A DNA stretch of 64,000 nt from the IMG/VR virus record IMGVR_UViG_3300021400_000252; one strand, written 5' to 3'. Of this stretch, positions 2,884 through 63,110 are shown piece after piece. This stretch comes from a virus (Duplodnaviria; Caudoviricetes). How positions within the stretch are numbered: the first letter of the stretch is position 1; the number at the start of each line of letters is the position of its first letter. Below the pieces are notes generated by a model. It had not been told where the DNA came from. It saw only the letters and a program-made list of their open reading frames with translations, and did no database searches. A program made the translations under genes and the position numbers.

Positions 2884-3063
2884 TTAATATTCATTTTTAG
2901 AAACGTCTAGACAAACACAGTAATCTTTATCAAGTTCATCTGCAAAGATCTGAACTATATAATATTCACCATATTTTGTTAAGTCATATTCATCCCATTT
3001 TTGTTCATCTAGATTAAAAATTACTGGATTCATAATTGTTACATCAAGATCTTTTACTTGCAT
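2884..3063 (-). CDS. Small hypothetical protein (59 aa)
   Basis: The ATG overlaps the Mre11 stop (TAATG). The frame MQVKDLDVTIMNP...SKNEY fills the gap to thyA. Confidence 0.65.
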   Translation of the reverse strand: MQVKDLDVTIMNPVIFNLDEQKWDEYDLTKYGEYYIVQIFADELDKDYCVCLDVSKNEY

Positions 3064-4115
3064 TATTTAAAGACCTCCACTAGTTCATATTCTAAAACTG
3101 AATTATTATCTAACTTTGCTTTACATAATTTCTTATATTCATTTTCATAATCACTTAGAGCTAAGTCATCAACATTAAATTCTTCATCTGAAACATAAAT
3201 ATTATTTAATGAATCTATAATTCTTTTTGCAATAATCTTTTGATTATTTTCTAATTTCTCTTTTAATGTTTTTACTAATTCATGTTGACATTTTGTTTGA
3301 ACAACCGCATTGTCTTTGATTAGATCTAATTGTGCAAAATCATCTTCTGTATTTATATCTATCTTATAGAAATTAAATGCATAAGGATTTTCGATAAATT
3401 CAAGATTTAAAGTTTCAGTATCTAAAATTAAAATATTATGTGAATACTTAAATGCATCTTCACCAAAATCTTTTCCAGTTAAATTTCCTAAATTTAAAAT
3501 TTTATCTGTGACCCAAATACCATTATGTAAATGACCATTAATAAATAGATCACAATTTTCCTCAATTTCGTCTTTTTCAAAACCAACTGATGAAATAATT
3601 GGACCCATTTTAATTCCAGCTAAATCATTATGAGAAAAAATTATACGTTTTAAATCTGTTCTTTTTCCAAAATAATCTACTAATGGTTGTCTATCACTCT
3701 CTGGAATATATGGTAAAATACAAATTTCAGTATTATCGATAATAAATTTTGTTGGAGTATTAATTACAGCTCTATCAAATTCACCTTTTGAATTTTTATG
3801 CTCAAGTAAGCTTGATAAGTGGAATGTTAAATCATGAAAATGTGTTTCGTGATTACCAACAATAAAAATCATCGGAATTTTTGACCACTTAATTTCCATA
3901 AACGCTGAAGCCTCAGTATCATTTAAATTTGTTCGATCAAAAAAGTCTCCTAAACAAATTATTTGAGAACAATTATGAATTTCAGCTTGTTCATGAAGTC
4001 ATTGAAGTGACTCTAATTGATTTTCTAGTCTTAATGTAGTATATTTACCTTTTTGAGTTACAATACTGCTTTTTTCACAAAAGTGATTATCAGCATATAT
4101 TAAAATTTTACTCAT
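3063..4115 (-). CDS. Mre11/SbcD-like nuclease (T4 gp47-like); one TGA-Trp at 4001-3999
   Basis: With TGA as Trp it reads MSKILIYADNH...LQWLHE...CLGDFFDR...VGNHE...FSH...GHLH, giving all metallophosphoesterase motifs. The track ORF lacks motifs I and II. Confidence 0.92.
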
Positions 4116-4755
4116 TCTTGTCTTCTTTCTTTTTTTCTACTTTTTCTTCCTTTTTAGGCTCTTCTTTCTTTTCAACACTCCAAGGAGCTAGATAACAAGT
4201 AGCTACATCTGCCATATGTGTTAAAGAGACTAATGGATTAGATTCATAAATTAAATAGATATCAGAAGCACTTTGTTCATTAAATCCACCATGACATAAT
4301 GCTAAAATTTGGTCATCAGTAAAATCTACAAAATGTTTTGCAAGCATATATGATGCAAAAGAATTATTACCATAGACTGGTCTATTATTTGTAACTTTAA
4401 ATGTTAAAACTTCTTCAGTAGCACCTGTATTAGGATTTACTTGTTGTTTATAAAATGGTTCATATAAAGCACATTTATAAAAGTTTCTAAATAATGCAAC
4501 TTTAATAATATCTTCACGTGTAACAGATTCTATATTATATACGTCACGTAATAAAATCATATTATCAAATAGCTTTAATGCTGTTTCACAAAGAGCACCT
4601 GGATAACTTCCATAACCTGTAGAGGTAAAAATTCCATTAAAATAATCGATTCTTTCTAAAAAATCAATTATTTTTTCCATATCAAAATTTAGTTCTGATA
4701 ATAATTCTAAATATCTAACTTTATTGTCAAATCTTTGTTCTTCAGTTAATGCCAT
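4108..4755 (-). CDS. Degenerate HD-domain protein (metal ligands lost)
   Basis: YGSYPGALCET, VALFRNFYK (HD replaced by RN) and LTHMAD follow the phage HD hydrolase layout. Start MALTEEQ has an AAGGA RBS. Confidence 0.55.
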   Translation of the reverse strand: MALTEEQRFDNKVRYLELLSELNFDMEKIIDFLERIDYFNGIFTSTGYGSYPGALCETALKLFDNMILLRDVYNIESVTREDIIKVALFRNFYKCALYEPFYKQQVNPNTGATEEVLTFKVTNNRPVYGNNSFASYMLAKHFVDFTDDQILALCHGGFNEQSASDIYLIYESNPLVSLTHMADVATCYLAPWSVEKKEEPKKEEKVEKKKEDKNE

Positions 4756-4856
4756 ATTCAAATTTCCTTTCTTAAAACTTACTTTATAATACACTATTTT
4801 TTCCTTAAATTTTAGGTCTAATTTTTTTAAAAATTTATTTTTCAATTAAATTATTT

Positions 4857-4865
4857 GCTAAATTG
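4857..4865 (+). promoter_or_regulatory. Late-promoter-like motif variant (TTTGCTAAATTGTCTGAT)
   Basis: One mismatch to the GCTAAATTA consensus; intergenic. Confidence 0.45.
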
Positions 4866-7030: not shown

Positions 7031-7858
7031 ATGTTATGGAAAAAACCCACAGGTATGTCTTATTGTGACATGTGTATATGAATAGATAAAAGTGGAGTTA
7101 TCCCAAGAATTGCTGAAAATAAAGGAAAATACCCTAAAGATGAGGATCTAGTTTATAATTATTTGTGGTTATTAACTAAGATGCTTGCAATTAAAAAACA
7201 TATGTTTGTAAATTTCTCAGACTATGATGGGTTTGCCTTCCATGCAGCTTCATTCTATTATTTCCAATTAATTAAGAATTGAAATAATCGTGGAAAATCA
7301 GTTAAAGGAAGAATAATTGGTCCTATTGTTAATATTCTAGATTATGTAAAAGGAACATTACACAATAGACGAGTTGAATATCAAGATCAATCATTTAGAC
7401 AGGTTTTATCTGAAGAAATGAATGATAATAATTTTGATCCATTCCAATTTAAACAACAATTATTATCTGATGCTCGGGCTCAAAATTATTCAAAAACAAT
7501 TACAACAATTACAGAATCAATTAAACAATGTGATTATCTAATCGATGAACTGTTAAAAACAACACCATTTAGGAAAGATTCATCGGATTGGAGAAATATA
7601 AAAATTTCAATTTTATTAAATACACGTAATATATTAGAAAAAAGAAATAAATTAGTTCCGCTTCAACAAGGTGTTTCGGTAACGTTATGACATTTACCAA
7701 AATCTCTTTCTGAATATGTTAGAGTATTAATTAATGAATTCTTTATTAAATTAAAGAGATTAATCTTAGATTGTTTCGAAATGGATAGAGTTGATGAATC
7801 AATCTTAACTAAAATGATTTCAAATCCGGAGGGCACTTATGAAGAAGAGCTTGATTAA
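7031..7858 (+). CDS. 275-aa protein with three TGA-Trp codons; possible phage sigma factor (gp55-like)
   Basis: Continuous frame through TGA at 7079, 7280 and 7688 to TAA at 7856. It has an RBS and overlaps the next gene. The sigma call is weak, based on position after gp46 and the segment LLTKMLAIKKHMFVNFSDYD. Confidence 0.6.
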
Positions 7859-8243: not shown

Positions 8244-8472
8244 AATTGATTGGGAGTCTCCTAAATTTCTAGAAGAAAATAGAAATTTTAAAACAAGATT
8301 ATTATTTATAAATAGTATTTTTTCAGATAAATTTGATGAACAAGATATAATTGGAAGATGTATTCAACATAAATTAAATTTTATGTTAGATAATTTAGAA
8401 AAAGAAACTGAAAGATCTTTATGGAATGTTAAAGGTGTAGATCCAATAAAGATTATGAAGTATTTAGATTAA
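8233..8472 (+). CDS. Hypothetical protein
   Basis: Open frame in the operon; ATG at 8233 overlaps the upstream gene. Confidence 0.6.
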   Translation: MVDRIDWESPKFLEENRNFKTRLLFINSIFSDKFDEQDIIGRCIQHKLNFMLDNLEKETERSLWNVKGVDPIKIMKYLD

Positions 8473-8483
8473 GGAGAAAATCC

Positions 8484-8816
8484 GTGGTTAAAAGAAATAT
8501 TGTAGATGATTTTGGAACTATATTTAAATTATCTTCAAAGCAAACATCATATATGACTGATATTTTTATTAATTGTATATGTGAAGCAATTAGAACAGCT
8601 AAAGCACAAAACGAATCAATATTAGTTTTAGATTTAGGAGTAAGTTCATTAAGCATAAATCTTGAAGATGGAAGTTGGAAAAGTGTACCATCTAAATCAA
8701 TGAAGAGTGCTTTTGGAAAGTCTATTTCTTCATCTCAACCAGAAGATTTACTAGTGGAGTCATTAACTGAAGCTATTGCAGCTAAGTTAAATTCTATTAT
8801 TAATGAGGTAGTATAA
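8484..8816 (+). CDS. Possible divergent HU/IHF-like DNA-binding protein
   Basis: LSSKQ...DIFINCICEAI...LDLGVSSL...PSKSMKSAF follows the HU layout with short arms. GTG start with AAGGAG RBS. Confidence 0.4.
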   Translation: MVKRNIVDDFGTIFKLSSKQTSYMTDIFINCICEAIRTAKAQNESILVLDLGVSSLSINLEDGSWKSVPSKSMKSAFGKSISSSQPEDLLVESLTEAIAAKLNSIINEVV

Positions 8817-8818
8817 TT

Positions 8819-9379
8819 ATGACTGATGAACAAAAACAAGATTTAGTCCTTGTAGATGATTTATCAGATGAAGATTTAAAAGAAAATATTGATGGATTAA
8901 AACGTGAAGCTTTAGAAATACTTAGCCAAATTACAACAACTTCAAATGAAGAAAAACAAAAAGATTTGCTTTATTTATTCAATCAAAATCAAAAGAAAAA
9001 AGCAATTGTTAGATCAAATAGCTATGGTGATCTATTAGATAATGTTTTAGGTGAAACAAAAGATAGAATATTAAACCATCCAGAAGAAATGGATATGGTT
9101 CAATTAATGAACATGTTAAAGATTATTCAAGATTTAATTGAAAAGAATAATAATTTAATTAATGGACAAACACCTAATACATTAATTCAAGTTAATAAAC
9201 ATACAACAAATGTTAATGTTGAAACTACAGATCCAAGACTTGAAGGAATTAATACTCAAAAAAGAAAGAATATTAATGATTTCTTAAGTTCTTTAGGTCT
9301 TTACTCTAAAGATAAAGATGAAGCTGAAGTAATTGATGCAGACATAGCTAATCTTGATGGAGATAAAAATGAAGAATAA
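8819..9379 (+). CDS. Hypothetical protein; possible terminase small subunit
   Basis: Helical body followed by an Asn/Thr-rich strand (NTLIQVNKHTTNVNV) and an acidic tail, as in many TerS proteins. Weak call. Confidence 0.35.
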   Translation: MTDEQKQDLVLVDDLSDEDLKENIDGLKREALEILSQITTTSNEEKQKDLLYLFNQNQKKKAIVRSNSYGDLLDNVLGETKDRILNHPEEMDMVQLMNMLKIIQDLIEKNNNLINGQTPNTLIQVNKHTTNVNVETTDPRLEGINTQKRKNINDFLSSLGLYSKDKDEAEVIDADIANLDGDKNEE

Positions 9380-45651: not shown

Positions 45652-45813
45652 ATGGGTAGAAATAAACTCGACCGAAGCCAAAAAGTTATACAATCTTTTG
45701 AATCAACTAAACCATTAAAACAACGTTTAGAAGATGAAGCTAGTAAAAGAAATATAACAGTATCGGCGCTAATTAGAGAAATATTAGAAAAGCACTATGA
45801 AGAAAGGGATTAA
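45652..45813 (+). CDS. Ribbon-helix-helix (CopG/Arc-like) DNA-binding protein, 53 aa
   Basis: Not in the track. AGGAG RBS; MGRNKLDRSQKVIQSFESTKPLKQRLEDEASKRNITVSALIREILEKHYEERD. Confidence 0.75.
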   Translation: MGRNKLDRSQKVIQSFESTKPLKQRLEDEASKRNITVSALIREILEKHYEERD

Positions 45814-45815
45814 TT

Positions 45816-46610: not shown

Positions 46611-46830
46611 TGATAATCCAGATGAATTATATGCTCCAAAACATTTTAAAGATGTAGTGCAAGAAGCATGGTTTATCTGTGACGCACTTCATATTGGATA
46701 TGAAGATGTAATGAAAATGACTGTAGTTGAAAGACATTATTTCATTGAATTTATTAAAGCTAAGAATGAAGCTGTAAATAAAAAGATTGAAGAGTCTAGA
46801 CAACAAGCTATGCAAAATAGACATAAATAG
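46588..46830 (+). CDS. Start-less downstream chaperone ORF, probably reached by programmed frameshift
   Basis: The +1 frame is open from 46567 to 46830 across TTTTTTA at 46587: LDPKYC...QEAWFICDALHIGYEDVMKMTVVERHYFIEFI. A terminator follows it. Confidence 0.7.
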   Translation, partial: FLDPKYCSDNPDELYAPKHFKDVVQEAWFICDALHIGYEDVMKMTVVERHYFIEFIKAKNEAVNKKIEESRQQAMQNRHK

Positions 46831-46857
46831 AGCATATTTACATATATGCTCTTTTTA
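46829..46857 (+). terminator. Intrinsic terminator
   Basis: AGAGCATAT/ATATGCTCT followed by a T-run. Confidence 0.7.
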
Positions 46858-46896
46858 TTTATTAAATTTTTATTAAATTAATAGAAAGTTTGATTT

Positions 46897-46905
46897 GCTA
46901 AATTA
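46897..46905 (+). promoter_or_regulatory. Putative late promoter GCTAAATTA
   Basis: TTTGCTAAATTAACTGAT. Confidence 0.7.
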
Positions 46906-46934
46906 ACTGATAGTTTAATTGATTGGAGTTCAAG

Positions 46935-49283
46935 ATGCCTGAAAAGAATTTAACTTCATTAAAACCATTATCTGTTGATAATGATATAAAAGAACAACTT
47001 AAACAAATTCATAAACAAATTAAGCAAGTTAGACTTGAGTCAAAACAATATGTTGAAGACGATTTACTTAAGTCTAAATCTTATTGGGAAGCTCAACTTG
47101 ACTTCTTAAAGAAATATGAGCTATATAAAAAAGAAGCACGTGAAAGAGAATATACTGAAGACGTGCGTATACAAGATAAACTATTAGAATTTAGAAAAAG
47201 TAATGATGAAAAAGCTCTTAGATCAGAAACAACTGCTCTTGAACGTTTATATAAACAAAAGAAAATTTGATCAAAAGCTGATTTTGATGACCGAATAGCT
47301 GCTATCAATGCTGAATTCGATGAAAAGATTAAAAAGCTAGAACTTTACGACGGACTCAGTGCAGCAATGATGGAAGAGCGTAAACAGAAAGCCATTGAAG
47401 ATGCAGAAGAGCAATATAAAAAAGGTCTTGAATTAGCTAAAAAAGAAATTGAAGAACAAAAGAAACGTGATAAAGAAAAAGAAAAGCGTGAAGAAGATAA
47501 GCGTAAAAAACAAAAAGCTAAAGATGCATATCAAGTATTAAATCCTTCTTTACGACAAGGTTTATCAAATGGACTAATGTCTCTTTTTAGTAAAGACTTT
47601 AGAGAACAAAGAAGAGCCGAAAAAGAGGCTGCTAAACAGGATTTAAGAGATGAAGGATACTCAGATAGTGATATTAGAAAAGGACGTATTACTGGTGTTC
47701 TTGATTCATTAACACATGCATTAGGTACATTTACTAAACAATTAGATTCAGCAATTACAACTACAGGTAATTTACAATCACAAATAGATACAAGATTATA
47801 TGGTTCTAATTTAGAAACTAAAGGTGGTTCTATTTGGAGAAAAATAAGTTCAGATATAACAAGTGTTGCATCTGTATCACCAATTGTAAAAATGAATGAC
47901 ATTGTTAATAATTTAAAAACAATGGTTGATTCTGGTATTGTTTATAATGTTGAACAACGTGCATTCTTAGCTACAATTAAAGATAAAATTGCTACAACAT
48001 TCGATGCTAATGATGCATCACTAAAGAAATTAATTCGTATCCAACAACAAGATACTACAGCTGGTAGACTTGGTATGGAAGCTGCATTAAATTCATTCTT
48101 AAATAATATGTATCAAACTACAGAATATTTAAAGGATTTAGCTACTCAAGTTAGAGGTGATTTATTCGAAGCTGAAGCATTATCTGATGCAAAGACTGGA
48201 ACTGAACTAGAATATACAGTTCAAAAATGGTTAGGTTCTATGTATTCAGTTGGTGCTAATAACGTTCAAAATATCTCAAAAGCATTAGGACAAATCTTAT
48301 CTGGTGATGTAAATGGTATTACTAGTGGTGGAGCTGGTAATCTATTAATTATGGCTGCCAATAGAGCTGGTGTTTCAGTTTCTGATATGTTATCTAGTGG
48401 TTTAAATAGTGATCAAACAAGTAATTTATTAGAAGAAGTTGTTAATTACTTAGGTGATATTTATGATCAAGCTAAGAATAGTAGAGTTGTTCAACAACAA
48501 TTAGCTCAATTATATGGTTTAACTGCTTCAGACTTAAAAGCTATTGCTGGATTAGCTCAAGATCAAAAAGCAAAAAAAGCAATTTCTAACCAATTGAGTT
48601 ATGATGGAATGGTTAATAACTTAATGAATATGGCAAACTCAATCACTAAGAGAATGTCTACTGGTGAAATGATGGATAATGTTTGGGAAAACTTTAAATA
48701 TTCACTTGGTGCTAGTATTGGAGCAAACCCAGTAACATATGCTATCTATAAAGCTGGTGGATTATTAGATGATGTCGTTGGTGGTATAGCTTTACCGGAT
48801 ATTAAATTTATGGGTACAGGTGTTAACTTACAAACCACTGTTGCTGACTTAATGAGAGTTGCTGCATTAAGTGGTGGTGTTATGACTGGTATTGGTAGTA
48901 TGTTAAGTGGTTTAGGTTCTGGTGGTAATGGAGCTTCAATGTTAAAGAAGTTAAATATAGGTGCAAACTTAACTACAGTTCAACGTGGTTCTGGTAATTT
49001 AGGAATTGGTGAACGTGGTGCTTCAACATCTTCATCAGGTTATGTTGGTAATGCTAGTGGATCTGATGTAAAGAATAAAGTTATGTCTGATGCTAGTGAA
49101 GAGCAAGAAAATACTTTAGCAACTGTTAAAGAGGAAAATACTGAAGTAACTATTGAAGACGTAAATGAAAATGTAGTATTAATTTATAAATTACTAGAAG
49201 ATGTTACAACCGGAGCATTAACATTTAAAGTTGAAGACCAAGGCTCAACAACTAGTAACTGGATAAGAGATACACTTCATTAG
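46935..49283 (+). CDS. Tape measure protein; one TGA-Trp at 47268
   Basis: Long helical Ala/Gly/Leu-rich protein after the chaperone. Track ORFs 46923 and 47367 are in frame. Confidence 0.75.
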
Positions 49284-49297
49284 AATAGGAGATAAAA

Positions 49298-50761
49298 ATG
49301 TTTACTTTTGATAATACTCATATTTTTACAGGTTATTTAAAACAATATTTATCTTCATTTAACCTTCCAAAATATCGAGTTTACACAGCAGAAAATGAAA
49401 AATATCATAGAGAACATATCTCTGAACGTAAAAATGAAAAAGATATTTTTAAAACAGTATTTAAAAATACAAATAATGAAACATATCACAAAGACACAAA
49501 ATATATTGAATATATCAAAGATGGATTTATTCAGTATTGTGTAGAAGAAAATGGAAGTTATAAGTGGATTAAATATGATAATAGACCATATGTATATAAT
49601 AGATTAGACTTAAATCATACTAAGAGATTAGTATTAAGTTCAAATGTTTATGATACATATACTCATGAATACTTAGGAGATTTCTTAAGATTTCAAAGAG
49701 ATTATAATCATGTAGACTTAATGCCATTATATAATTGTTTTAATAATAAAATTGTTAATCACTTAAATCTTGAATTTGATAAAACTTATTTTGAAACAGA
49801 AAACTTTGTTTCATCAGATGCAATTTCAAATAATCCAACAGTATATAATGTGTCATTTAAATCTTCTGATACTAACTATAAAATATATATGCTTCCAGTT
49901 AAGTTATTTCATGAATATACTATAGCTATAGATAGTCCAAATGTAATTGAAATGTGTTGTGGATTCTTTGGAGAATATTTAGATGAAAGAGAAAAGTTTA
50001 AACCTTTCTCTCAAGCTACTTATGTTAAGTATAAATCAATGAATTTTAACCAACCAGTAATATTTGATAAATTATTAAGTGAAAATTTAAGTAAAGAAAT
50101 TAAACGATTAACTAATAATGGTGATTATATAAATACAGAATTAGCATTAATGGAAAAAGATTTAAAATTATTTATAAAAGTTCCACATGATTTAAATTCA
50201 ACAATCACAATTCTAGAAGGAAATTATATTGGATGGAATGATTCATTCTATTCAAAGCGTGATAATAAAGATTTTAAATTTATTCAAAATAAATTCGTTA
50301 CTAATTATCAAAATTATTCCGATGATCAGAAATTTGTACCAATTACAAGACTACAATTATTGAGTTTAAATACTAAAGTTAGTTATCCATTTGCAGATAA
50401 ATTGTTAGAATATTTAGCTGGAAATGTAATTACAAATTTAGATACTATTGAAGATAATATTAAGAGAGTTGAAACTGTTTTAGCATTAAATGGTAATCCA
50501 ATCCAAAGAGATTCAGATGGCAATCCATTAGGATTATGGACAGATCGTTATAGAAGAACAGTTTATGATAAACTAACAGATGTCACATCAATTGAACACT
50601 TAGATCAAAATAAAAATAAATCAAATTTAAGTGAAACAAACCTAGAAACATTAGGATTTGTTGATAAAGTTGCTGAGAAAAATTATACCTATTCTTATAC
50701 TAATGAGGATGGTAAAACAGTCTTAACAAGTATTGCAGGTGTAGATATTTACTCAGAATAA
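49298..50761 (+). CDS. Hypothetical tail or baseplate protein
   Basis: Position in the tail operon; AGGAG RBS. Confidence 0.6.
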   Translation: MFTFDNTHIFTGYLKQYLSSFNLPKYRVYTAENEKYHREHISERKNEKDIFKTVFKNTNNETYHKDTKYIEYIKDGFIQYCVEENGSYKWIKYDNRPYVYNRLDLNHTKRLVLSSNVYDTYTHEYLGDFLRFQRDYNHVDLMPLYNCFNNKIVNHLNLEFDKTYFETENFVSSDAISNNPTVYNVSFKSSDTNYKIYMLPVKLFHEYTIAIDSPNVIEMCCGFFGEYLDEREKFKPFSQATYVKYKSMNFNQPVIFDKLLSENLSKEIKRLTNNGDYINTELALMEKDLKLFIKVPHDLNSTITILEGNYIGWNDSFYSKRDNKDFKFIQNKFVTNYQNYSDDQKFVPITRLQLLSLNTKVSYPFADKLLEYLAGNVITNLDTIEDNIKRVETVLALNGNPIQRDSDGNPLGLWTDRYRRTVYDKLTDVTSIEHLDQNKNKSNLSETNLETLGFVDKVAEKNYTYSYTNEDGKTVLTSIAGVDIYSE

Positions 50762-50777
50762 AGATAGGAGATAAAAT

Positions 50778-51425
50778 ATGGGATATCAACCTTCTTATGA
50801 ATACTCATCAGAAGTAATCAAAAAATATACCAAAGAAAATATATACCAAGCTCCTAAAAACTATATTTATATTTCTCACCTAGATGAGGATTATAGATAT
50901 TGGAGATTACCAAATTGGCCTGATGAGTTCAATGATAGTATGCAATCATCTTTTGCTACTACTACAGCTTTAGGTAGATCTGCTCCAGTTTACACTTATT
51001 CAAATTCAGGTCCAAGAACTATTAATATTACATTAGTAATCCACAGAGATGAATTTGATGATGTTAATATGTCTTGGAGTAATTCAAAACTCGGATATGG
51101 TGAAGATTATGTTGATAATCTAATTAGAGCATTACAATCAATTGCTTTACCGAGATATAATGTAGATAATAAAGCAGTAGAACCACCTTTAGTTGCATTA
51201 AAAATTGGTAAATCTTTATTTATTAAAGGTATTGTAAATGGACCTGTCGGTGTTACACAAGGAAAACCAATTTTAAGAGGTGATTTATATGCAAACCTAC
51301 AAGTGTCATTTTCAATAACTGAAGTAGATCCATATGATGCTACAACAGTATTTACTAATGGTTCTTATAGAGGTGAAATGAATACATTTAGACAAGGTGC
51401 TAGAAATATTGGAATAGACGATTAA
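50778..51425 (+). CDS. Tail tube initiator / baseplate tube-like protein
   Basis: LGRSAPVYTYSNSGPRTINITL and PPLVALKIG. Confidence 0.75.
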   Translation: MGYQPSYEYSSEVIKKYTKENIYQAPKNYIYISHLDEDYRYWRLPNWPDEFNDSMQSSFATTTALGRSAPVYTYSNSGPRTINITLVIHRDEFDDVNMSWSNSKLGYGEDYVDNLIRALQSIALPRYNVDNKAVEPPLVALKIGKSLFIKGIVNGPVGVTQGKPILRGDLYANLQVSFSITEVDPYDATTVFTNGSYRGEMNTFRQGARNIGIDD

Positions 51426-51438
51426 TTTGGAGATTTAT

Positions 51439-51765
51439 ATGGATAGATTAAAAAATAAATCTTATAAAAACTATAATTATACAAATCGATACACTACAGT
51501 ACCATATTATTATGATACTAAAACTGGAAAATATGTTTATGGTATAGGAACTTCTATGGATAAATCAATTCCATACTATACTCATAAATTATCTAGTAAT
51601 GATACATTAGATTACTTAGCTTTAAAATATTATGCAAATCCAACTTTATGGTGAATTATTGCTTATTTTAATGATATTATAGATCCATTTATTAAATTAA
51701 CTGACTGTTATACTCAAATCAAAATTCCAAATATGGCAAGTATTAAATTTGGAGCAGATAGATAA
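51439..51765 (+). CDS. LysM-type baseplate wedge protein (T4 gp53 / P2 gpX-like); one TGA-Trp at 51652
   Basis: DTLDYLALKYYANPTLWWIIAYFNDIIDPF...IKIP, with the second W from TGA. Confidence 0.88.
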
Positions 51766-53087
51766 TGATAAACACTAAATTAAAATTTTCAGAACAAAGA
51801 CGTAGTTTATTATCTGATGGTGCTAGAGTTCAAGTACCTTGGATAAAAGTTACTATTGGTAAATATACATTTGGAGTATTTTCAAAAACAAAAGCTACAA
51901 AAAATGTAGACGGTTTTTATGAAAATTTTAATGTAATGTATCCAAATTATATTTCAAGACTAGATATAACAAAAATTAATGGTCAAGTTAATCAATACAC
52001 ATTAACTATTAATTATCCTATTACAGTTAATGATGATCCAAATTTCTTTGAAAAAGTCTTTTCGAGTGTAAGTAGTTCACGTAAAATAGTCTTTACTTAT
52101 GGAGATTGTTCATTACCAACTTATGTTTATAAAGACGAAGAAGCAATTATTACAAAAGTTACAACAAATGTATCTCTAGAAAGTTCTAAAATAACTTATG
52201 TTGTTAATGCAACTTCAACAGCAACATTAGGTCTATCTGGCTCTATTACTAGAATTAGTGATGAAAGACCACATAAACCTAGTGATATAATTAAAGGATT
52301 ATTTAGAGATAAAACAACAGGACTTCAAGATTTATTTAAAGGTATGAGCGTTGATAACTTAGATAAATTAATAGATAGTTCAGACCAAGCAGTTGTCTTA
52401 CACTCTAAAGTAAATATTTCAGTATTAGATTATATTTCATATTTAGTAAGTTGTATGATTCCAGATGGCTCTGTTGTTGGAGATAGAAGTAATGCTATAT
52501 ACATATTAACTATTCATGATGAAACATTATATGATAGAGCTTATGAATCTTTAGGAACAGCTAATGATTTATTAAATGTAGGTCCTTATTTTAAAGTTAC
52601 TAGAACAACACACTTAGGAAATCATTCAGACGCGTATAATATTGATGTTGGATATAATACTTCAACTATTGTTTCTAACTTTTCATTACAAGATAATGAG
52701 AATTATGCATTATTCTATGATTATCAAGCTGAATTAAATCAAAATAATTATGTTAGAAGAATTAATTCAGATGGAGTATGAGAAGATGTGTATGCTCCAA
52801 GTTTAGCTTCAAAAAATGAGCATTTTGAAGTTAGAACTGAAGATAGAACATGGTGGACAAAGATAACAAAATATCCTGTAAAAGCTTCTATAACCATTCA
52901 AGGATTATTACGTCCAGCAGTATTAATGTCTTATGTAAGATTAAATGTAATCTTTCCTGGTGGACATAAACATATTTCGTCTGGATTATATATTATAACA
53001 AGTCAAACAGATTCAATTAGTGAAAGTGGTTATAAAACAACATTATCTTTAACTAAGATAGATGGTGATGATGATATTAAAATTTAA
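51765..53087 (+). CDS. Baseplate hub protein (gp27/gpD-like); one TGA-Trp at 52779
   Basis: C-terminal ASITIQG...SSGLYIITSQTDSISESGYKTTLSL, in frame with track ORF 52788. Confidence 0.75.
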
Positions 53088-53182
53088 CGTTTAGGAACGT
53101 TTTATTTAATTAATGATTAATTTAATTACTTAATAAATAAACGCTATCCTGGTGACGATTTCTATTGAAAGGAACGATAATT

Positions 53183-54067
53183 ATGTTAACTCAAGCTGAA
53201 ATTAAACAAGTAATAACTCGTAATAATCTAAGTGGATCCTCTGAAGAAACAGGTGTATACTTAGTCCATATTCCATTATTCGATACAGTAACAAAAATTA
53301 ATACACTTGTTTATGCTCATGCATTATACAATGATGCAGGATATGGTTCATATGAAGTCGGTGATTTAGTGTGGGTTGGTTTTGAAAAGAATGAAGCCGG
53401 TAAGCCAGTAATTCTTGGAAGGATGTATCAAGGAAGAGAGTTAGCCACACTTAAAAATAAATATAAATCTCAAGTTACTGGTAAGGATTTAGATATTAAA
53501 GAAAAAGCATCATTACCTTATGATACTTTATTTAAAGATAAAACATTTGCAAGTCTTAATACTGATGTAATTAATTTAAATGAAAAAGTTGAAAAACTGC
53601 TTCCATTAGTTGAACTTCAAAATGCTGATACAATGGATACTGAACAAAGATACATTCGAACTAAGAATATTAAGTATAGTGCTGAAAAAACGTTTTATAA
53701 TAATGTTAAATCAACTCAAGCAGAAGTTTATACATATAACTTACTTATTCCATCTCAACAAGTATTTACTAGAATGAGCGTAGCTGCTTTATCGAGTTAT
53801 TCGCCTAATTATAAATTACCAAATGGTGATTTAATCATTCATAATATTAATGCTTACTGTTTACTTACAGAAAGTAATCAATCAAGACATTTAAATATTA
53901 GTCCATATATTTATATTCAAACTGTTGGATATGGTAAATCTAAAACTAATGATATATTTTTTGATACTATAAGATTTTGTGAAGACTTTGATATTAGTTC
54001 TCAATTTAGTATTACTTTAGATTACTTATCTTTAAATATTGAATATTCAAACATTACAAAGAAATAA
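53183..54067 (+). CDS. Baseplate spike protein with a gp5/gpV-like OB-fold N-terminus
   Basis: EVGDLVWVGFEKNEAGKPVILG; located between the hub and gp25 genes. Confidence 0.75.
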   Translation: MLTQAEIKQVITRNNLSGSSEETGVYLVHIPLFDTVTKINTLVYAHALYNDAGYGSYEVGDLVWVGFEKNEAGKPVILGRMYQGRELATLKNKYKSQVTGKDLDIKEKASLPYDTLFKDKTFASLNTDVINLNEKVEKLLPLVELQNADTMDTEQRYIRTKNIKYSAEKTFYNNVKSTQAEVYTYNLLIPSQQVFTRMSVAALSSYSPNYKLPNGDLIIHNINAYCLLTESNQSRHLNISPYIYIQTVGYGKSKTNDIFFDTIRFCEDFDISSQFSITLDYLSLNIEYSNITKK

Positions 54068-54073
54068 TATAAA

Positions 54074-54111
54074 AAAAATAAAGTTATTAAATATTTAATA
54101 ACTTTATTTTT
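54074..54111. terminator. Long A/T-rich palindrome, probable terminator
   Basis: AAAAATAAAGTTATTAAATATTTAATAACTTTATTTTT is self-complementary. Confidence 0.55.
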
Positions 54112-54121
54112 ACTTTTAATT

Positions 54122-54130
54122 GCTAAATTA
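54122..54130 (+). promoter_or_regulatory. Putative late promoter GCTAAATTA
   Basis: TTGCTAAATTATATAG. Confidence 0.7.
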
Positions 54131-54157
54131 TATAGTTAGTTGTAAAGGAGATTAAAA

Positions 54158-54541
54158 ATGCGTTCAATTAAATTTCCAAATATGTTTAATACGAATAGTA
54201 CTAATGTATGAAAGTCTTCTGAGTATAAAGAAGCAACCGCACAAAACACAGAATTAGTTCTATTAAGTGAACGTCGTTCTTTAATCGGTGACCCATTCTG
54301 GGGTGGATTAATCGATTCATTAACTTTTGAACAAAACTCTCAAATGACATCTGAAATTTTGGCTGATGTAATTTATGAACAAGTTTCAATTTTTATACCT
54401 CAGTTAAAAATTAGACGTGAAGATATAGTTATAAGACGTGAATCAGGAAAAATATATGCAGATATTCATGGAATAAATCAAATAGATTATCAAAATGATC
54501 TTTACACTTTAATACTTTCAAATAATTCATTAAACGAGTAA
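54158..54541 (+). CDS. Baseplate wedge / sheath initiator (T4 gp25-like); one TGA-Trp at 54209
   Basis: MRSIKFP...QNTELVLLSERRSLIGDPFWG..I..LTFEQN...FIPQL; AAGGAG RBS. Confidence 0.85.
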
Positions 54542-54556
54542 ACAGGAGAATGAAAT

Positions 54557-57500
54557 ATGATAAATAATAAAGATATCGCTGCAATTGAATTATCACCAAC
54601 TGCTAAAGATTATTATCAAATATGGAACGAATTACTAGAGACTGCAAAAAAGCTTTCTGCTAGATGGGATCCAACAACAACAAATGAATCAGATCCTGGT
54701 ATCGTTTTATTAAAAGTTATTACAGCTATTGTAGATAGACTAAATTTCCAAAATGATATTACAGCTCTTGAAGTTTTTATGCCATCTGCATCTGAATTTG
54801 AAAGTATGCAAAAATTATGTAATATGATGGGATATAATATTAAATATTATCAATCAGCAACAACTGATGTTACGTTATATTATAGTGGACAAAAAGAATG
54901 GACAGAGTCTTCTTATTTAATTCCAATGTTTACTGCTTTTACAAATGCAGATAAAAGTATAAATTATTTTACAACTGAACCAAAATATTTAACAAAGAAT
55001 TCATACGGAGTTCTATTACCTTGTATTGAAGGACAAATAGAACAATGTGAATCAGATAATGATAATATTATTTCTATTTATCAATTAGATGATAATCATA
55101 GATATTATTTCTCTGAAACTCAAGTTGCTCAAAATGGTATCTTTGTTTTCAATATTAATGATGGAAATAAGAGTGAAAGATGGACTGAAGTAGATAATTT
55201 AAATTCTCAACAAGCAAAGAGTAAAGTATATAAATTTGGATTTGATTCTAGATTAGCAAAACCATTCATCGAATTCCCTGAAGATATTAGTTCAATAATT
55301 GAAGACGGTCTAGAAATTTATTATACTAGAACATCTGGTATTAGTGGAAATATTAGTGCTCGTGAATTAAGTGCTTTCGTAACAGTACCTTCAACATTAA
55401 GCGATGGACTTGATGGTGATTCAGCAAACTATACTATTGTTAATGCTTCATCATCAACTAATGGAGCTAATATTGAATCAATTCCTGAAGCTTATACTAA
55501 TTATAAAAAGACAATAGGTACTTTTGATACATTAATTAATTGTAGAGATTATATGAATAAAATCTATCAATTAAAAGATGATGCAAATATTGATTTAGTT
55601 TCAAATTGTTTAGTTTCAGATATTAATAATGATATTAACCACTCTATTAAATTATGTACATATAATGATTATGGAATTTATTATAAGAACGTTCAAACTT
55701 CTGATGATTCTCCTATTGATAACTTTACATTAACATTATATCCATTTAAGAGAGTAAATAATTTAAATACTAAATCTGAGTACTTAAATTCATTTAAATT
55801 GGATAGAAGTGTTTTAACAGATATTGAAACTAAGCTTGAAAATCTTAAGACATTAGTTCATAAATTTAGATTACCTTCTGAAGAATACGGTGACAATAAA
55901 GAACCAGAAATTGTTGCAATTAAGAATTACTTACAATTAAAGGCTATCATTACTACTACTGAAAGAGTAAATAAAGCCGAGCAAAGCGTAATTCTAGCAA
56001 ACATTAAGACTGCAATTTATGAAAACTTTAATTTACGTAAATTAGATTTTAGTGAACAAATTCCATATGAAAGCATACTAGAAGTAATCACTAATGCAGA
56101 TAAAAGAATTAAGAATGTTAACTTAGACGAACCAACATTATTAACAAAATTTTTATTAGCAAATAATAATGAATATAGTGTTGCTAGTACTTATTCTATA
56201 GATCAATCAAATAAAAAATTTAATAACTTAAGTGGTGAAGAACAATTAAGTAGAAAGATATATAATAAACTTGCACTTAGAAATATCTTAGCTGGAAAGC
56301 TTGAGTTATTTAATTATAATACTGAATTTAAATCATCATTCACTGAAGCTAAATATCCAGACACTACTACTATTAGTGTTGTAACACCAAAGGCAGGAGA
56401 TTTAGAAAGATATGGTGTTGTAAAAATTAATACAGCAACTCAATATGATTTAAATAGTACTGGAGATAAAAAATTAACTAATGGTGAAATAATTCAATTT
56501 AGATCTAAAAATCTAAGAACAACAATTACATATCCAGCATATGTAAATTATTATTTATCATTAAAAAATACTTCAGGATTGGATAATTCAGCAAAACCTG
56601 CATCATTTATCACTTTATATGATTGTTTAATGTATTTAGGTAAATCATCAAGTACTCCATTATCATTTAGTACAAGTCAGAGTTCATTTACTTTTACACC
56701 TACTTCTATCTCAAATGAAGTTGAATTTAATGCTTACGATGGTAGAGAAATCTTATTTGTACAATCTACAACAGATAGTACTAAATATAACACAGGAAAT
56801 GGTTGAGTAAATGACCAACGTCAAAGATTCGTAAGTGACACTACATATTATACTTTAAATGTAAAAGCTGCAGATAATTTCTACGCATTAGTTTCTTATA
56901 TTAAAAAGAAAATTCTTGTTAACTCAATTTATTATGACGGAATTTATAAATGTTTAGGTGCAAGCAAGAATTATATTCCAGGATACTTAATTGATCAAAA
57001 TCAATATAAATATACTAGATTACTTTTTGCTCCAGTTAATGGTAGCTGGACTAGTTACTTTGTTCAAGATCCAACTAATGGATATGCTAAAGCAGAAAAT
57101 AATTATAGCTTAGGTAAGGATGCTGTTCTAGAAGGTCTTGCAAAGAATGGTGAATATCAATTAAAAGATGGAGAATTCTTATTAATTAATTACACTAATT
57201 CAGAAACAGAAACTGACGGTACATCACAAAAAGAAACCATAATAAATAAATATTATGGAAAAGGAACTATAATTAGACCTAATTTTAAAATGGTTGATTC
57301 AATTCAAAAGTTCAATGCTGGTAGTTCTTATACTAAAACAGATATAGATTTTAAAACTGCATTCGACGAAGCTAACGTTCAATTAACAAATACTGTTTAT
57401 TCATTATTTACATTAGGTTCTGATGAACAAATTGAGATAAGAGAATTTGCTGATATTTATTTAGATTCAAACACAGTGTACTTATATTGGAATTTAAATA

Positions 57501-59395
57501 ATAGTTCAAATGTATTAAGACTTAAGTTTGAATCAAAGAAAACTGTTGGTGGTTATAATGTATATACTCACACTTATACTCTAAGTGAGAATGAATATAT
57601 TTATTATTCAGATCAAAATCAATTAGACATGGCATATTATGGAAATGGTACAAAGATTTCTATGAAACAATATGTCTCAGTTTCAACTTCTGTTGATGAA
57701 TCAGAATTACGAGCTGATAGAACATTCTATATTAAAGATAAGACTGTAAATAATGAAACAATTTTAACTGAAGGATTAAGAAGTATTCCTTGGCAAAAAT
57801 TTAACTTTGATTCACACTCTATTGATTCAAATAAAACATTCATGGTTTTAACTGAATATAATTATATAAATTTAATCGAAGGTGATTATATTGTTAACTT
57901 AGAATTAGATACTGAAGATTCAGATGAGTCTGATGGCTCAGCATTAGCGAGTGAACAAAAAATTGGTAATGACTGAGTTAAAATTAAGCAAAACAGTCTA
58001 GTTAGTTATTATTCAGACGGTGTTTACAAAGAATTACCAAAATTAGATTTTGAAGATAAAGAAAATTACTGGGAAGTCTCTTGTAAATTAGTTTTAAACT
58101 GTGGACCGGATTTAGATCAAACATTAGTAAATACTAATGATACAATTACTTTACATTTATTAAGTAAGACTATAATTAATGATATTATTAATAGTTATAA
58201 TGAGACTGGTGCGGATATTAAAGGAAGTATTGATAGCAAGATTGCAGAATATACTCAATCACCAGACCAATCAAATTATAAACCAATAGAATTAAAGAAA
58301 ACTAATAATCAATATCCATTAAACTTAAAATCTAATTATGAATTAAGAAATGCATATGGTGATATTTATACTTTAATTCAGACTACAGATTCTGATACTG
58401 GTGAAGATACATTTATTTATGACTTTAAAGTTAAATCAACTAGTATAAATAATCTTACAACTGCTTTAAATACATCATTAAATCAATCATTACATAACGT
58501 AAGTGATAATTTAACAAGATTTTCATTCAATGAAATCTTCAACTCAAGATTAGTTACTCAAAATCTTGATTATAAACCAAATGATGATAATGTTAATCTA
58601 AGTTTATTACTTCCAATTGAAAATGCTGGTGCAGGTACAACTCAAACAAATTGGCAATATGGAATAGTGATGATTTATTATATTAAAAATCAAACTACTA
58701 AGACAAATGTTCAAGATGTTGCAATAACACTTTCAACCGCTACATCTGCACCAACACCAAAGATATTTGGAAACTTTGTTAAAGATCCAGAAGATAATCT
58801 ATCAAATGTAGATCCATCTAAATTTGGTTGGTGGAACCAAGACAGTGATAGTTTAAGTGCTGATACATATTATAGTTATAATAGTGGTACTTATTATAAA
58901 TTAAAACCAGGAATAAACATTTTATATATTCCATCATCAGTTACATTAAAGATTTATCCAGATGTTTATTCTGACGATGGTGGTACTACATATAAATTAA
59001 AATGTGAAGATTCGATCATCATATCTGATTTAAGTTTAGTTAATGCAACTAGAGATAATATCTTCGGAATTAATTTAGATTTAGTTCATTATTATATTAC
59101 AACTAAAGCTTCACCAAGTGATAATGAAGTTAGTGATATTGGAAAGCAATTAATTCTTGATATTAGTAAGATAGATAAAGATAATGAATTCTTCTACAAT
59201 TCTCCTATTAACAATAATAATGCAATTGATATTAACACAAAAGCATTAGATGTTAATGGAGATAATGAGAGTTTACAAAGTCCAAATATTTGGTACAGCA
59301 GAAACAATGTAAATAATCCATATGTAATTTCTGAAATCGATATAAAGTCAGTTGATAGTAATATTCAAATAGCTAGATCTTCAATGAAGAATTAA
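54557..59395 (+). CDS. Large baseplate wedge protein (gp6/gpJ-like N-terminus, 1612 aa); TGA-Trp at 56804 and 57974
   Basis: KDY..I, ESDPGIVLL, MMGYNIKYYQSATT, TNGANIES and RDY. Three track ORFs share one frame. Confidence 0.85.
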
Positions 59396-59405
59396 GGAGA
59401 CATTT

Positions 59406-60104
59406 ATGATAAAGATTCAAGATGAAACTCCAAGCATTTATTATAACAAATCTCGAGACTTCCAATTTATTGGTAGATTATTCGAGATTATGTTAAATTA
59501 TTCAAAAACAAATACAGATCTATTATATAGTTTACCTTCTAAAAATACTGACTTTGCAGATTTATTAGCTCTAACACTTGGAATCAACTTAAAACATGAT
59601 TATAATACAGATCAGTTAATGGCTATTTGTAGTATATTTCCAACAATTCTAAAAAATAAAGGAACATTTAATGCATTAAAGTTAGTCGGTGATACTATTC
59701 TTCATGCAGAAGGTATCACTGATAACTTCGATTATCAATTTGATTCAGATAATTACACATTAACAATCTTCATTCCTATAGAATTAACAGATTTAAGTTT
59801 ATTTAATGATTTATTAGAATATATTTTACCGGCTGGTGTTTGTTATAATATTGTAAAAACAACAAGAGTAAAAGAAGTGATAACTCAAAAATTTGATTTA
59901 AACGAAAAAATGACTATCACAAAATTAGACCTTGAAAGAACAGCTAAATTAAGAAAAGAGTATGATAGTAAACATACTCAAATAGGTGCTCAACCTGGAT
60001 ATTTAATTAATACAGGAATTATTAGACCTACAAGTACCTTAGATAAACCTAAGGAAACAACCACAGATAATATTGTTTATCAAGATGACAAGTTATCTGA
60101 ATAA
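59406..60104 (+). CDS. Baseplate wedge protein (gp7/gpI-like)
   Basis: LLALTLG, ILKNKGT..AL and LEYILPAG. Confidence 0.75.
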   Translation: MIKIQDETPSIYYNKSRDFQFIGRLFEIMLNYSKTNTDLLYSLPSKNTDFADLLALTLGINLKHDYNTDQLMAICSIFPTILKNKGTFNALKLVGDTILHAEGITDNFDYQFDSDNYTLTIFIPIELTDLSLFNDLLEYILPAGVCYNIVKTTRVKEVITQKFDLNEKMTITKLDLERTAKLRKEYDSKHTQIGAQPGYLINTGIIRPTSTLDKPKETTTDNIVYQDDKLSE

Positions 60105-60126
60105 TATATAGAAAGTTGAGTGTAAT

Positions 60127-60714
60127 ATGACTGATACTTATTTAGACTCATTACAATACACTGGAACAATTATTGTTAAAGAATTTAAAGGTAAAGAGTT
60201 AATAAAAATAAATAAATTTCATAATCAAGGTTGTGATCCGTTATTTAGATTCTTTGCAAAGTGTCTTGGAGGAGATTTTGCTTCTGCAAAATTATTAAAA
60301 CCAACTAAGATAAAATTATTTGATGTTATTAATAAAAATTCCGATTCGCCTGCTGGATTTGATTTTAGTACTACATCAATGAGAAATGTATCTACTGATT
60401 TTATTTATTTAGATACAAATGTATTTGTACAAGAAGATAAAGCTACCTTTAGATTTTCAATTCCATATTCATATCTAATTGGTAGCTTCCTATCTGTTAT
60501 TGGATTATATGCTGATTCAGAAACAAATGATAAAGCACCTTGTGCTTATTATCTACTAACAAAAGAAGTTGTACAGAATTATAATAAGATATTAGAATGG
60601 GATCCAGTAGATATTCGAGATAAAAACCATAACTTTAGTTTATTAGTTGAATGAACAATGCAAGTAAGTAATCCAGAAAAAATTAAAGAGAATAATGTTG
60701 TTAGTAGTAATTAA
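60127..60714 (+). CDS. Baseplate-fibre adaptor-like protein; one TGA-Trp at 60652
   Basis: HNQG, VIGLY and terminal FSLLVEWTMQV; TAA at 60712 overlaps the next RBS. Confidence 0.65.
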
Positions 60715-60725
60715 GGAGAAAAAAC

Positions 60726-63110
60726 ATGGCTATAAATTATTTTAAAAGTGATAATGTAGAAGTTTATCCTTCAGCATATAGAGGAACATATAAAAAAGAT
60801 AATGAATTATATACTTATAATGTTGAAAGTTCAATTTATACAGAAGTAAATCATACATTATTCTCACATATTAATAAAGATACTTACATTATTACTGATC
60901 CAGATAAAGTCTCAAAAAATAATCCACTTGAAGTATTGATTCATGGATATTATTTTAAAATACTTAATCCAAGTGAGCTTTTTGATACAACAGGTAAATT
61001 CAATATTAGTTATTTAGGTATTAGAACTAAGTTAGTTCCTATTGGTACAGATCAAAATAGTACAATTTTATGTGCATTTACTAATGATACTAATGTTGAT
61101 AGTACTGGAACATTAGATGTAGCAAATGGTGATTTTGTCGGACTAGCTTATTCAAAAGATGTTAAACCTGTAGAAGGCCAATCATCTGAATATAAATACT
61201 ATTTCTTAGACTTTACTACTAATGACAAAAATGAATTATACGGTAAAATCAAAAATGTTGATTTAGAAGACGATATTATAACTACAGAAAAAATAGTTGA
61301 TCAAAGTGTTACTACAGACAAATTACATGATGGTGATATCACAACTGAAAAAGTTAAAGATGAAGCTATTACTCATGAAAAAATAGCTGATAATGCTATT
61401 GAAAATAATAATATTAAAAATAATACTATTGAAAATGTAAAGCTTCTTAATAAAACTATTGAAGGTAATAAGATTAAAGACAGTACTATCGGTACAAGTC
61501 ATATTATTGATAAAGCAGTTACTTCTAAGAAAATTGCTGAAAGTAATGTATTAACTGAGCATATCAAAGACGATAATATTACTTTTGATAAACTTGGACC
61601 TGGAGCTATTAAATATGATCCAGATAAACGTATTATAGCTGATGATGCAATTAGAGCAAGTAATATTGCTGCTAATAGTATTATTGAAGAGAAAATTCAA
61701 AACTCAGCAGTAACAACTAAGAAAGTAAATGATAAAGCAATTACAACAGAAAAAATCGCAGATAAAGCGGTTACAAACGATAAGATTGCTCAAAGTGCAG
61801 TAAAGACTGATAATTTAGATTCTAATGCGATTATTTATGGTGCTAAATATATTGTAAATGCTAGTGGAAATGGAAATAGATATACTCGTAGCGATAAATT
61901 ATTATTTATTGACAATGGTGAAATTAAAGAAAGTAACGTTAACATTGGTTCTGTAAATAACCCAGTATATTTAGATAATGGTATATTTAAGTCAGTTAAT
62001 AGAACTGGTTCTTATTCTAAACCAATTGTTGGAATAAATGATTTAAACTATGCTTTTGTTAATGATGGTATTCAATTTAATAGTTATGCAAAAATTTATC
62101 TTTCAGGAAATAAATTATATGTAAATAGATCATTAGATTTATCAAATAATAATATTGAAAATATTAAAAAGATTAATGTAGGTGAACTTAATGCAAATAC
62201 GTTTACAGCTCAAACATTTAAAGTAAGTGGTTCTATTATTTGTTATGGTAGTCCAAGTATTAAACTTGCAGGTGGACAAAACATTGTTTTCCAAGATGTA
62301 CCAAGTGAGCATACTGGAACTAAATTATTTATTAAGACAAATAATAATGGAATAAAACTATCTGCAGAACATTATGCTTATAATCCTAGTTCATGTTCTA
62401 GTACAAAAGATACAGAAAATTATTTATGGTTAACAAAAGATTATACTCAGTTAAATAAAAAATTATGTGGTACTGGAAGTCTTATTCTAACAAACTCTAG
62501 TTCTGAATCTTCTCGAATAACACTAAATAGTTCAGATATTAGTATTAAAACTGATACTATAGTTTTGAATAATGATACTAAGATTTCAAATGGTAGAGTT
62601 CGATTCATTAAAACTCCTTACTTTAACAAAGGTATATATTCTGATACTTTTGACCTAACATATTCTTGATGGTCAAATCTTTGAAAATATAGTGATTATT
62701 ATTATAATAGTTCTCTATTACAGGATATAGTTGCAAACACAATACATGATCGTGGATATACATCCAGTACATTAATATTAATAGAAGGAGTTGTTTACTT
62801 TAACTTAAGTTATCATGATAGTGATCAACTTCGAAGAAGAATCGGTATACCATTTGCAATAAGTGCTTACTATTATAGTAATGGAAATTATGTTGATAAA
62901 CTTCCTGATTCTTATGATCAGAGTTATGTTGCTGTTGCAAATCTAGATTATTTATTAGGATGGGATAAAGATAATGGAGGTATTTATCTAGAAATCGAAA
63001 ATAGAGAATTTAGACTTAGAGGATTTAAAGGACAAGGAAGCAATAACGAAGTATTTCAATATATCGATAAGCCTGGAATCATTATTTCTAGAATTAGTAC
63101 ATTACATTAA
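60726..63110 (+). CDS. Tail fibre / receptor-binding protein (794 aa); TGA-Trp at 62667 and 62682
   Basis: 10-residue repeats of the ITTEKIADKA type. The frame stays open to TAA at 63108, just before a terminator. Confidence 0.8.

Follow-up and report, generated by a model that had tools for sequence, protein, structure and literature searches.

The window and its gene content

The stretch of DNA analysed here, 64,000 nucleotides of the IMG/VR virus record IMGVR_UViG_3300021400_000252 (Caudoviricetes; hereafter the window, meaning this stretch at its full length), carries in-frame TGA codons in many of its genes, and our subject is how the phage reads them. The guanine-cytosine (GC) content is 27% across the window; the minus strand holds one small gene block (1-4845), and all other genes lie on the plus strand, among them those for a topoisomerase, a MoxR/vWA module, terminase, a T4-like portal, a prohead protease and a Gp23-type capsid protein, followed by a gp13-like neck protein, sheath, tube, baseplate and fibre genes. 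No transfer RNA (tRNA) gene was found within the 64,000 nucleotides. Exact-protein matches led to contigs as long as 244 kb in metagenomes from the guts of sheep and other ruminants, and two loci (L006 and L007 in our numbering of relatives) are 100% identical to positions 53580-64000 (10.4 kb). Among the isolate phages of INPHARED, neither the sheath protein nor 20 kb of the window's DNA found a match. The window is part of a T4-like jumbo phage of about 244 kb and 27% GC from ruminant gut samples.

Genes were modelled as the longest open reading frames (ORFs) with TGA taken as a sense codon, which gave 58 ORFs covering 96% of the window. In this model 19 genes contain in-frame TGA codons, 26 in all, the same numbers as in a preliminary description of this DNA, which had proposed that the phage reads TGA as tryptophan (Trp). 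A 27th TGA fell into a spurious antisense ORF (8453-8839, minus strand) and was discarded, the real gene there being 8484-8816. As that description had indicated, the genes end in TAA or TAG (49 and 9 of the 58), none of them ends in TGA, and the last 19 codons of every ORF are free of it. The seven TAATG overlaps between genes that it had listed are all present, the one at 3063 being on the minus strand, and so are the four peptide contexts that it had quoted around TGA codons (yiWgnrt, tlwWiia, tdrWi and lveWt).

Downstream of each TGA the frame runs free of TAA and TAG for 19 to 862 codons; given an off-frame TAA plus TAG rate of 8.9% per codon, the joint log10 P of these open frames is about -222. 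Off frame, TGA is 32-fold commoner than in frame. Identical TGAs were found again in independent assemblies from several studies, and they are therefore not assembly errors. Coding density, which the preliminary description had named as a check, is highest with TGA as sense (95.8%, against 89.1% under code 11 and 90.2% with TAG as sense), and the number of genes drops from 73 to 58 as the mean length rises from 262 to 354 amino acids. Moreover, Pfam and PHROG domains either span the TGAs (Metallophos/SbcD, portal, protease) or sit past them (sheath C-terminal domain).

TGA sites align with tryptophan codons in related phages

For a codon-level test we aligned proteins of the window with those of nine relatives of 35-88% protein identity (L003, L004, L016-L019, L021, L076 and L077) and tracked the codon under each W. 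Protein-level alignments were used since nucleotide-level alignments were unreliable in the fibre region, which is 65-75% identical and yielded TCA/TGA pairings. The 57 partners of window TGA codons comprised 25 TGG, 16 TGA and 16 codons for another residue (Y6, I2, L2, P2, V2, Q1, A1), neither Gly nor Cys occurring among them, whereas window TGG codons were paired with 117 TGG, 42 TGA and 70 codons for other residues. The Trp-codon share of partners was accordingly 72% at TGA sites versus 69% at TGG sites. All but one of the 26 TGA sites could be tested, and at 19 of these 25 at least one relative has TGG. Exchange between the two codons was also seen at short range: close strains (98-99% identical) swap TGA and TGG at 25298, 28510 and 28903, and the more divergent fibre region does so at 54209, 57974 and 60652. 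The TGA-bearing genes, with the codons or residues that relatives have at the same sites, are as follows.

3063-4115, minus strand: SbcD-like metallophosphoesterase gene; TGA at 4001 (residue 39), spanned by both Metallophos (3-198) and PHROG 100 (2-323); TGG in L077, TGA in L076
7031-7858, plus strand: 275-amino-acid gene with a sigma-region-2-like N-terminal domain; TGA at 7079, 7280 and 7688 (residues 17, 84 and 220); TGG partners in L076 and L077
9674-10042, plus strand: 122-amino-acid gene; TGA at 9776 (residue 35); TGG in L076, Y in L077, TGA kept in five close strains
22000-23358, plus strand: 452-amino-acid gene, PHROG 36119 with a weak NTP_transf_2 match; TGA at 22294 (residue 99)
24203-25747, plus strand: 514-amino-acid gene; TGA at 25298 (residue 366); TGG in L018 and in L002 (about 99% identical to the window in DNA over the aligned stretch), TGA in L016 and L017
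25788-27914, plus strand: terminase large subunit, PHROG 2 and PHROG 9; TGA at 26028, 26802, 27114 and 27642; TGG at all four in L018
27931-29994, plus strand: T4-like portal; TGA at 28255 (residue 109), spanned by Pfam Portal_T4 (75-569); TGG in L018
31172-33175, plus strand: head maturation protease; TGA at 31601 (residue 144), spanned by PHROG 207 (10-234); a variable column, with P or I in relatives
35650-36372, plus strand: gp13-like neck protein, whose orthologues carry PF26809 (Phage_T4_gp13); TGA at 36178 (residue 177); TGG in L018 and L019, TGA in L017 and L021
41155-42108, plus strand: 317-amino-acid virion-module gene; TGA at 41305 (residue 51), kept in L019 with the alignment continuing on both sides
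42421-43155, plus strand: tail or baseplate protein, listed from 42403 and probably starting at the ATG at 42421, behind AAGGAG; TGA at 42478; TGG in L019, V or A in more distant relatives
43236-44894, plus strand: tail sheath; TGA at 44526 (residue 431, yiWgnrt), with the Pfam sheath C-terminal domain (450-539) beyond it; TGG in L019 and L021
46923-49283, plus strand: 786-amino-acid tail-module gene; TGA at 47268 (residue 116); TGG in L019, Y in L021
51427-51765, plus strand: gp53-like baseplate wedge subunit, PHROG 7145 and PHROG 232; TGA at 51652 (residue 76); TGG in L019, TGA in L021
51765-53087, plus strand: 440-amino-acid baseplate-module gene; TGA at 52779 (residue 339); TGG in L019 and L021
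54158-54541, plus strand: 127-amino-acid gene; TGA at 54209 (residue 18); TGG in L004, TGA in L003, Y in L021
54557-59395, plus strand: 1612-amino-acid fibre or baseplate protein, whose L004 orthologue is a single unbroken gene of 1591 amino acids; TGA at 56804 (V in L004) and 57974 (TGG in L003, L004 and L005)
60127-60714, plus strand: 195-amino-acid gene for which no family match was found and the label 'adaptor' in the preliminary description was not confirmed; TGA at 60652 (residue 176); TGG in L003, L004 and L005
60726-63110, plus strand: 794-amino-acid distal tail protein; TGA at 62667 and 62682; L and Y in L004, with the alignment continuing past both

Database homologues lead to the same residue. 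All 119 portal homologues have W at residue 109, and the L018 portal translates fully under table 11, so that its W is a TGG codon. Sheath residue 431 is W in 118 of 119 homologues and aligns with the W of the WGaRT motif in the solved sheath protein Afp2. In the terminase, a HMMER search gave W in 114/119 at residue 77, W or A at 439, Y, W or F at 615 and I, L or W at 335, and in the 275-amino-acid protein residue 220 is W in 119/119, residue 17 is F, Y or W and residue 84 is variable, mostly Q. Because some of the W's in databases may themselves be TGA codons read by code 4, we gave the codon-level test more weight than these columns. Sequence searches of the PDB with the SbcD-like, gp13-like and gp53-like proteins returned nothing usable, the best gp53 hit having only E = 0.44.

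The preliminary description had presented four of the TGA sites as Trp positions conserved throughout their families. This stood at the family level for the sheath; for the sites in the gp13-like, gp53-like and 195-amino-acid proteins it stood among orthologues, in which the codon is TGG. The broader proposal, that TGA is read as Trp, agrees with what we found and accounts for the TGG swaps, the W columns, the domains running across TGAs and a tRNA with Trp identity marks, which is described below.

A phage tRNA with a UCA anticodon lies just beyond the window

In the 244-kb relatives, ARAGORN and Rfam both found a 96-nucleotide tRNA with the anticodon UCA, flanked by genes for a SIS-domain protein and a DUF5662 protein and situated about 2.3 kb past the point that matches the window's end. 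Copies of this tRNA(UCA) were located as follows, in the coordinates of each locus.

L003, 12712-12807: tRNA(UCA)
L004, 12712-12810: tRNA(UCA), strongly diverged
L006, 12712-12787: first 76 nucleotides of tRNA(UCA), at the very end of the contig of this window-identical strain and cut by it
L028: tRNA(UCA)

The cloverleaf is intact, with a canonical 7/5 arrangement of acceptor and T-stem, a 7-bp acceptor stem with A1-U72, the discriminator G73, an encoded CCA end and the anticodon loop CUUCAAA. A1-U72 and G73 are identity marks of bacterial tRNA-Trp and not of the Gly or selenocysteine (Sec) tRNAs, and both the acceptor and the discriminator match those of the phage's own tRNA-Trp(CCA), which belongs to an array of 15-16 further tRNAs a little beyond tRNA(UCA). 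A peculiarity of tRNA(UCA) is its long extra arm, the loop of which is AGUCCAAA and resembles the Trp CCA anticodon loop (UCCAAA). The stem of this arm covaries (GGCCG/CGGCC in L003, AGCCG/CGGCU in L028) and its loop is preserved in the diverged L004 copy. From these sequence features the extra arm may be a handle by which tryptophanyl-tRNA synthetase (TrpRS) accepts tRNA(UCA). A search for the two-armed tRNA pattern in four metagenome-assembled genomes (MAGs) returned one chance-like match; in IMG/VR it returned 48 contigs with 32 distinct stretches, all of which except L028 look protein-coding. TrpRS was not found near tRNA(UCA).

The decoder of TGA is most probably this tRNA of the phage itself; it would be charged with Trp, probably by the host TrpRS, and once charged would compete with the release factor at UGA.

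The interval between tRNA(UCA) and the main tRNA array also holds a ROOL RNA (Rfam RF03087, 248-255 bits; L003 13735-14352 and L004 13810-14425), about 3.3 kb past the window's end.

TGA is held down and scattered at random over the genes

TGA makes up 26 of the 165 Trp codons (16%), while the A-ending share of the purine-ending codon pairs of Lys, Glu, Gln, Leu and Arg is 77-98%; TGA is therefore strongly held down. We infer that this low use reflects the cost of competing with the host's release factor 2 (RF2). In relatives the TGA share of Trp codons ranges from 11% to 73%, which indicates that the whole clade is recoded, with the window's lineage at the low end.

At first sight TGA tends to occur once per gene. 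If the 26 TGAs were dealt out at random among the 165 Trp codons, however, 19.2 +/- 1.8 genes would be expected to bear one, and 19 were observed, so that this look is due to chance, and one TGA per gene as a feature of design was rejected on the same ground. Inside the genes the relative positions of TGA are spread evenly, from 0.06 to 0.89, and no difference between TGA and TGG was seen in the base that follows. Along the window, the virion block at 22-64 kb has 21 TGA versus 91 TGG, the block at 5-11 kb has 4 versus 7, and the SbcD-like gene also contains TGA; the block at 11.4-22 kb has none among its 27 Trp codons (P about 0.01, uncorrected).

As a separate observation, the major capsid protein gene (33212-34642, plus strand, 476 amino acids) is free of Trp codons, TGG and TGA alike.

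Promoter-like motifs and a possible link to late genes

Two promoter-like motifs recur in the window.

4856, 13468, 19995, 24086, 30560, 31143, 35555, 35620, 43183, 46896 and 54121, plus strand: motif TGCTAAATT
upstream of the genes at 5125, 7031, 23408 and 25788, plus strand, and of the minus-strand gene ending at 1941: motif TTGTATTAT

The eleven copies of TGCTAAATT, versus 2.5 expected, are all intergenic and just upstream of genes, and the motif is probably the late promoter. TGA is found in genes behind both motifs, and both also occur upstream of the tRNA(UCA) gene.

The gene richest in TGA is the 275-amino-acid gene at 7031-7858, in which TGA accounts for 3 of the 6 Trp codons. Pfam and PHROGs gave nothing for it, and an AlphaFold model of the protein (predicted local distance difference test score, pLDDT, 83) had no match in Foldseek. 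A structural search independent of Foldseek aligned residues 11-122 with many sigma region-2 domains and also with 7d7d_F, chain F of the T4 late-transcription complex, at Z 7.4 over 97 aligned residues. We take this chain to be gp55; Z values of this size are common for helical bundles. Judging from the predicted fold, the gene is a candidate, and may encode a gp55-like late sigma factor.

Two readings would place the recoding within phage development. It has been suggested for recoded phages that in-frame stops act as a gate on translation (10.1101/2021.08.26.457843), and applied here this would mean that sparse TGAs, one per gene, delay the virion proteins and perhaps a late sigma factor until the suppressor tRNA has accumulated. 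The half share of TGA in the candidate sigma gene, with its match to 7d7d_F, and the empty block at 11.4-22 kb would both suit such a gate. Yet the 3 of 6 in a single gene is not significant once 44 genes are tested, the sigma-like match lies within the helical-bundle range, the number of TGA-bearing genes and the positions of TGA within them are what chance predicts, and TGA stands behind both motifs, with the tRNA gene itself having both upstream. A gate is thus doubtful in this phage. We likewise think it rather unlikely that the recoding is wired into development in such a way that tRNA(UCA) is needed before the TGCTAAATT late promoters fire and thereby licenses late transcription; under such licensing the TGA-rich 7031-7858 would be the late sigma factor, dependent on tRNA(UCA), and the spare CCA-anticodon-like arm could let the host TrpRS charge this tRNA. 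The random scatter of TGA together with its presence behind both motifs suggests a genome-wide property and not a gene-specific switch.

The code of the host and other readings of TGA

If TGA is a Trp codon throughout the phage, the host itself might use code 4, as a Mycoplasmatota-like bacterium lacking RF2 would; the phage would then simply follow its host, and tRNA(UCA) would top up the supply. TGA is never a stop in the 58 genes, it is found not only in virion genes but also in those of nucleotide metabolism and of the early block, and tRNA carriage is not specific, since the phage also has tRNA-Trp(CCA) and some 15 other tRNAs, all of which a code-4 host would accommodate. At 27% GC, however, such a host would lead one to expect TGA as the main Trp codon, and it stands at 16% where the comparable codon pairs reach 77-98%; the wide range of TGA use among relatives suggests that the trait is still in flux. 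A 244-kb phage would be large for hosts of about 1 Mb, and 65% of the genes are preceded by a Shine-Dalgarno motif against a background of 6.5%. Distant relatives of the phage occur in four MAG bins, assigned to Lachnospiraceae (twice, counting Waltera), Bacteroidales and Bacilli, each of which has two genes with a release factor domain; no such gene lies on the single phage contig with an inferable number. In addition, published TGA-recoded gut phages were assigned to standard-code hosts (10.1101/2021.08.26.457843). We regard a code-4 host as improbable.

Reading TGA as glycine (code 25), selenocysteine or cysteine can be set aside with still greater assurance. Code 25 leaves the frames just as open, and ARAGORN labels the tRNA 'SeC' on account of its UCA anticodon and long arm. 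Bacterial tRNA-Sec, however, has an 8/5 acceptor/T-stem and tRNA-Gly has G1-C72, neither of which agrees with the A1-U72, G73 and 7/5 arrangement found here, and Gly and Cys are both absent from the 57 aligned partners of TGA. In the database columns Gly appears once in about 119 homologues at one of the seven terminase and early-gene columns and never at the portal and sheath columns. These assignments are highly improbable.

That the TGAs are real stops, marking broken genes, assembly errors or low-level leaky readthrough, is equally remote: several public gene calls do split genes at TGA, but 19 essential-looking genes (portal, sheath, terminase and protease among them) would all be broken, the frames stay open downstream, the same TGAs recur across independent assemblies, and TGA sites are as well conserved as TGG sites and swap with TGG.

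We therefore return to TGA as a Trp sense codon that is never a stop and is most probably decoded by the phage's own tRNA(UCA), and on the joint sequence evidence we consider this reading very probable. Several points pull in the other direction. At six sites the relatives have only a non-Trp residue or another TGA, which would fit variable Trp positions and by itself proves nothing, and 22294 is the sole TGA with no aligned homologue, its support being the continuity of the frame, with 353 codons open downstream. The roles of tRNA(UCA) as decoder and as carrier of Trp are deduced, its charging being predicted from identity marks, and no 'code change operon' of release factor 1 (RF1) or TrpRS was found in the stretches examined. 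A standard-code host, finally, is likewise deduced, because TGA is held at 16%, the phage brings its own tRNA and published relatives have such hosts; the membership of distant relatives in MAG bins hints only weakly at the host.

Relation to known recoded phages

Phages that read TGA as Trp were reported by Borges et al. from the guts of humans and animals; they have suppressor tRNAs and hosts with the standard code (10.1101/2021.08.26.457843). This bears out the statement in the preliminary description that such gut phages had been described. Their set covers cattle samples and clades such as Jade and Agate, and two Jade phages have RF1 and TrpRS (10.1101/2021.08.26.457843). The present phage resembles them in its in-frame TGAs in conserved genes, the lack of TGA stops, the phage-borne tRNA(UCA), the animal-gut source, the large genome and the wide differences in TGA use between close relatives. 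It differs from them in that TGA is only 16% of the Trp codons and the gain in coding density only 6.7 points, in that TGA is not confined to structural or lysis genes, and in the lack of the RF1/TrpRS operon in the stretches examined.

A 2025 preprint reports mass spectrometry in which Trp was inserted at UGA by phage TrpRS:tRNA(UCA) pairs (10.1101/2025.10.30.685624). Our phage likewise has a tRNA with a UCA anticodon, and the AP1 tRNA also has G73; those tRNAs are accompanied by a phage TrpRS, whereas none was found near the tRNA here, which in addition has the long extra arm with its CCA-anticodon-like loop.

The codes of other systems show similar partial likenesses. Mycoplasma, Spiroplasma and their phages read TGA as Trp by means of a tRNA-Trp(UCA), as we propose for this phage, but in code 4 of Mycoplasma and Spiroplasma most Trp codons are TGA and the cell has lost RF2, while here TGG makes up 84% and the decoder tRNA is phage-borne. 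The crAss-like and Lak gut phages that read TAG as Gln (code 15; PMC9523058) also turn a stop into sense with a phage suppressor tRNA; codon and amino acid are different, TAG is the stop of 9 genes here, and reading it as sense gains almost no coding density. Code 25 of Absconditabacteria and Gracilibacteria shares a sense TGA and an AT-rich genome with the phage, in which, unlike there, the aligned columns are Trp or aromatic and never Gly, and the tRNA has Trp and not Gly marks.

The phenomenon itself is thus already published and has been demonstrated by experiment in other phages, and this phage is a further example. What is particular to it is the low TGA share, a density gain below the 10% threshold of some surveys, the absence of a restriction to late genes and the two-armed tRNA. 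Standard-code gene calling mis-annotates this phage and many of its relatives, and in public annotations the genes for portal, sheath, terminase and fibre are broken up at TGA. Survey thresholds for the density gain lie at 5-10%, and a 2026 jumbo-phage survey that included the rumen detected TGA recoding at a 10% density cut-off (PMC13037316), which the 6.7 points do not reach. Because sparse TGA keeps the gain below such a cut-off, lightly recoded phages are probably under-counted. The practical value of these results lies in annotation and in surveys of recoded phages. With its range of 11% to 73% TGA, the clade is good material for following the stepwise capture of a stop codon, and it suits the study of what restrains TGA use, presumably competition with RF2.

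A mosaic tail module and possible insertions in the terminase family

Two further observations concern the virion genes. Comparison of window positions 43236-63110 with L003, L004 and L019 revealed that tail, baseplate and fibre proteins are only 40-88% identical between strains that are 98% identical in their replication and head regions (sheath 57%, the 794-amino-acid distal tail protein 40%, the 127-amino-acid gene 88%). By these sequence comparisons the tail module is strongly mosaic inside one species-level group of phages. Many homologues of the terminase (25800-27911), on the other hand, are 800-1450 amino acids long, and their match to the query is divided into 2-4 stretches with a break near query residues 207-209, which suggests insertions, intein or other, at a fixed site in this terminase family.

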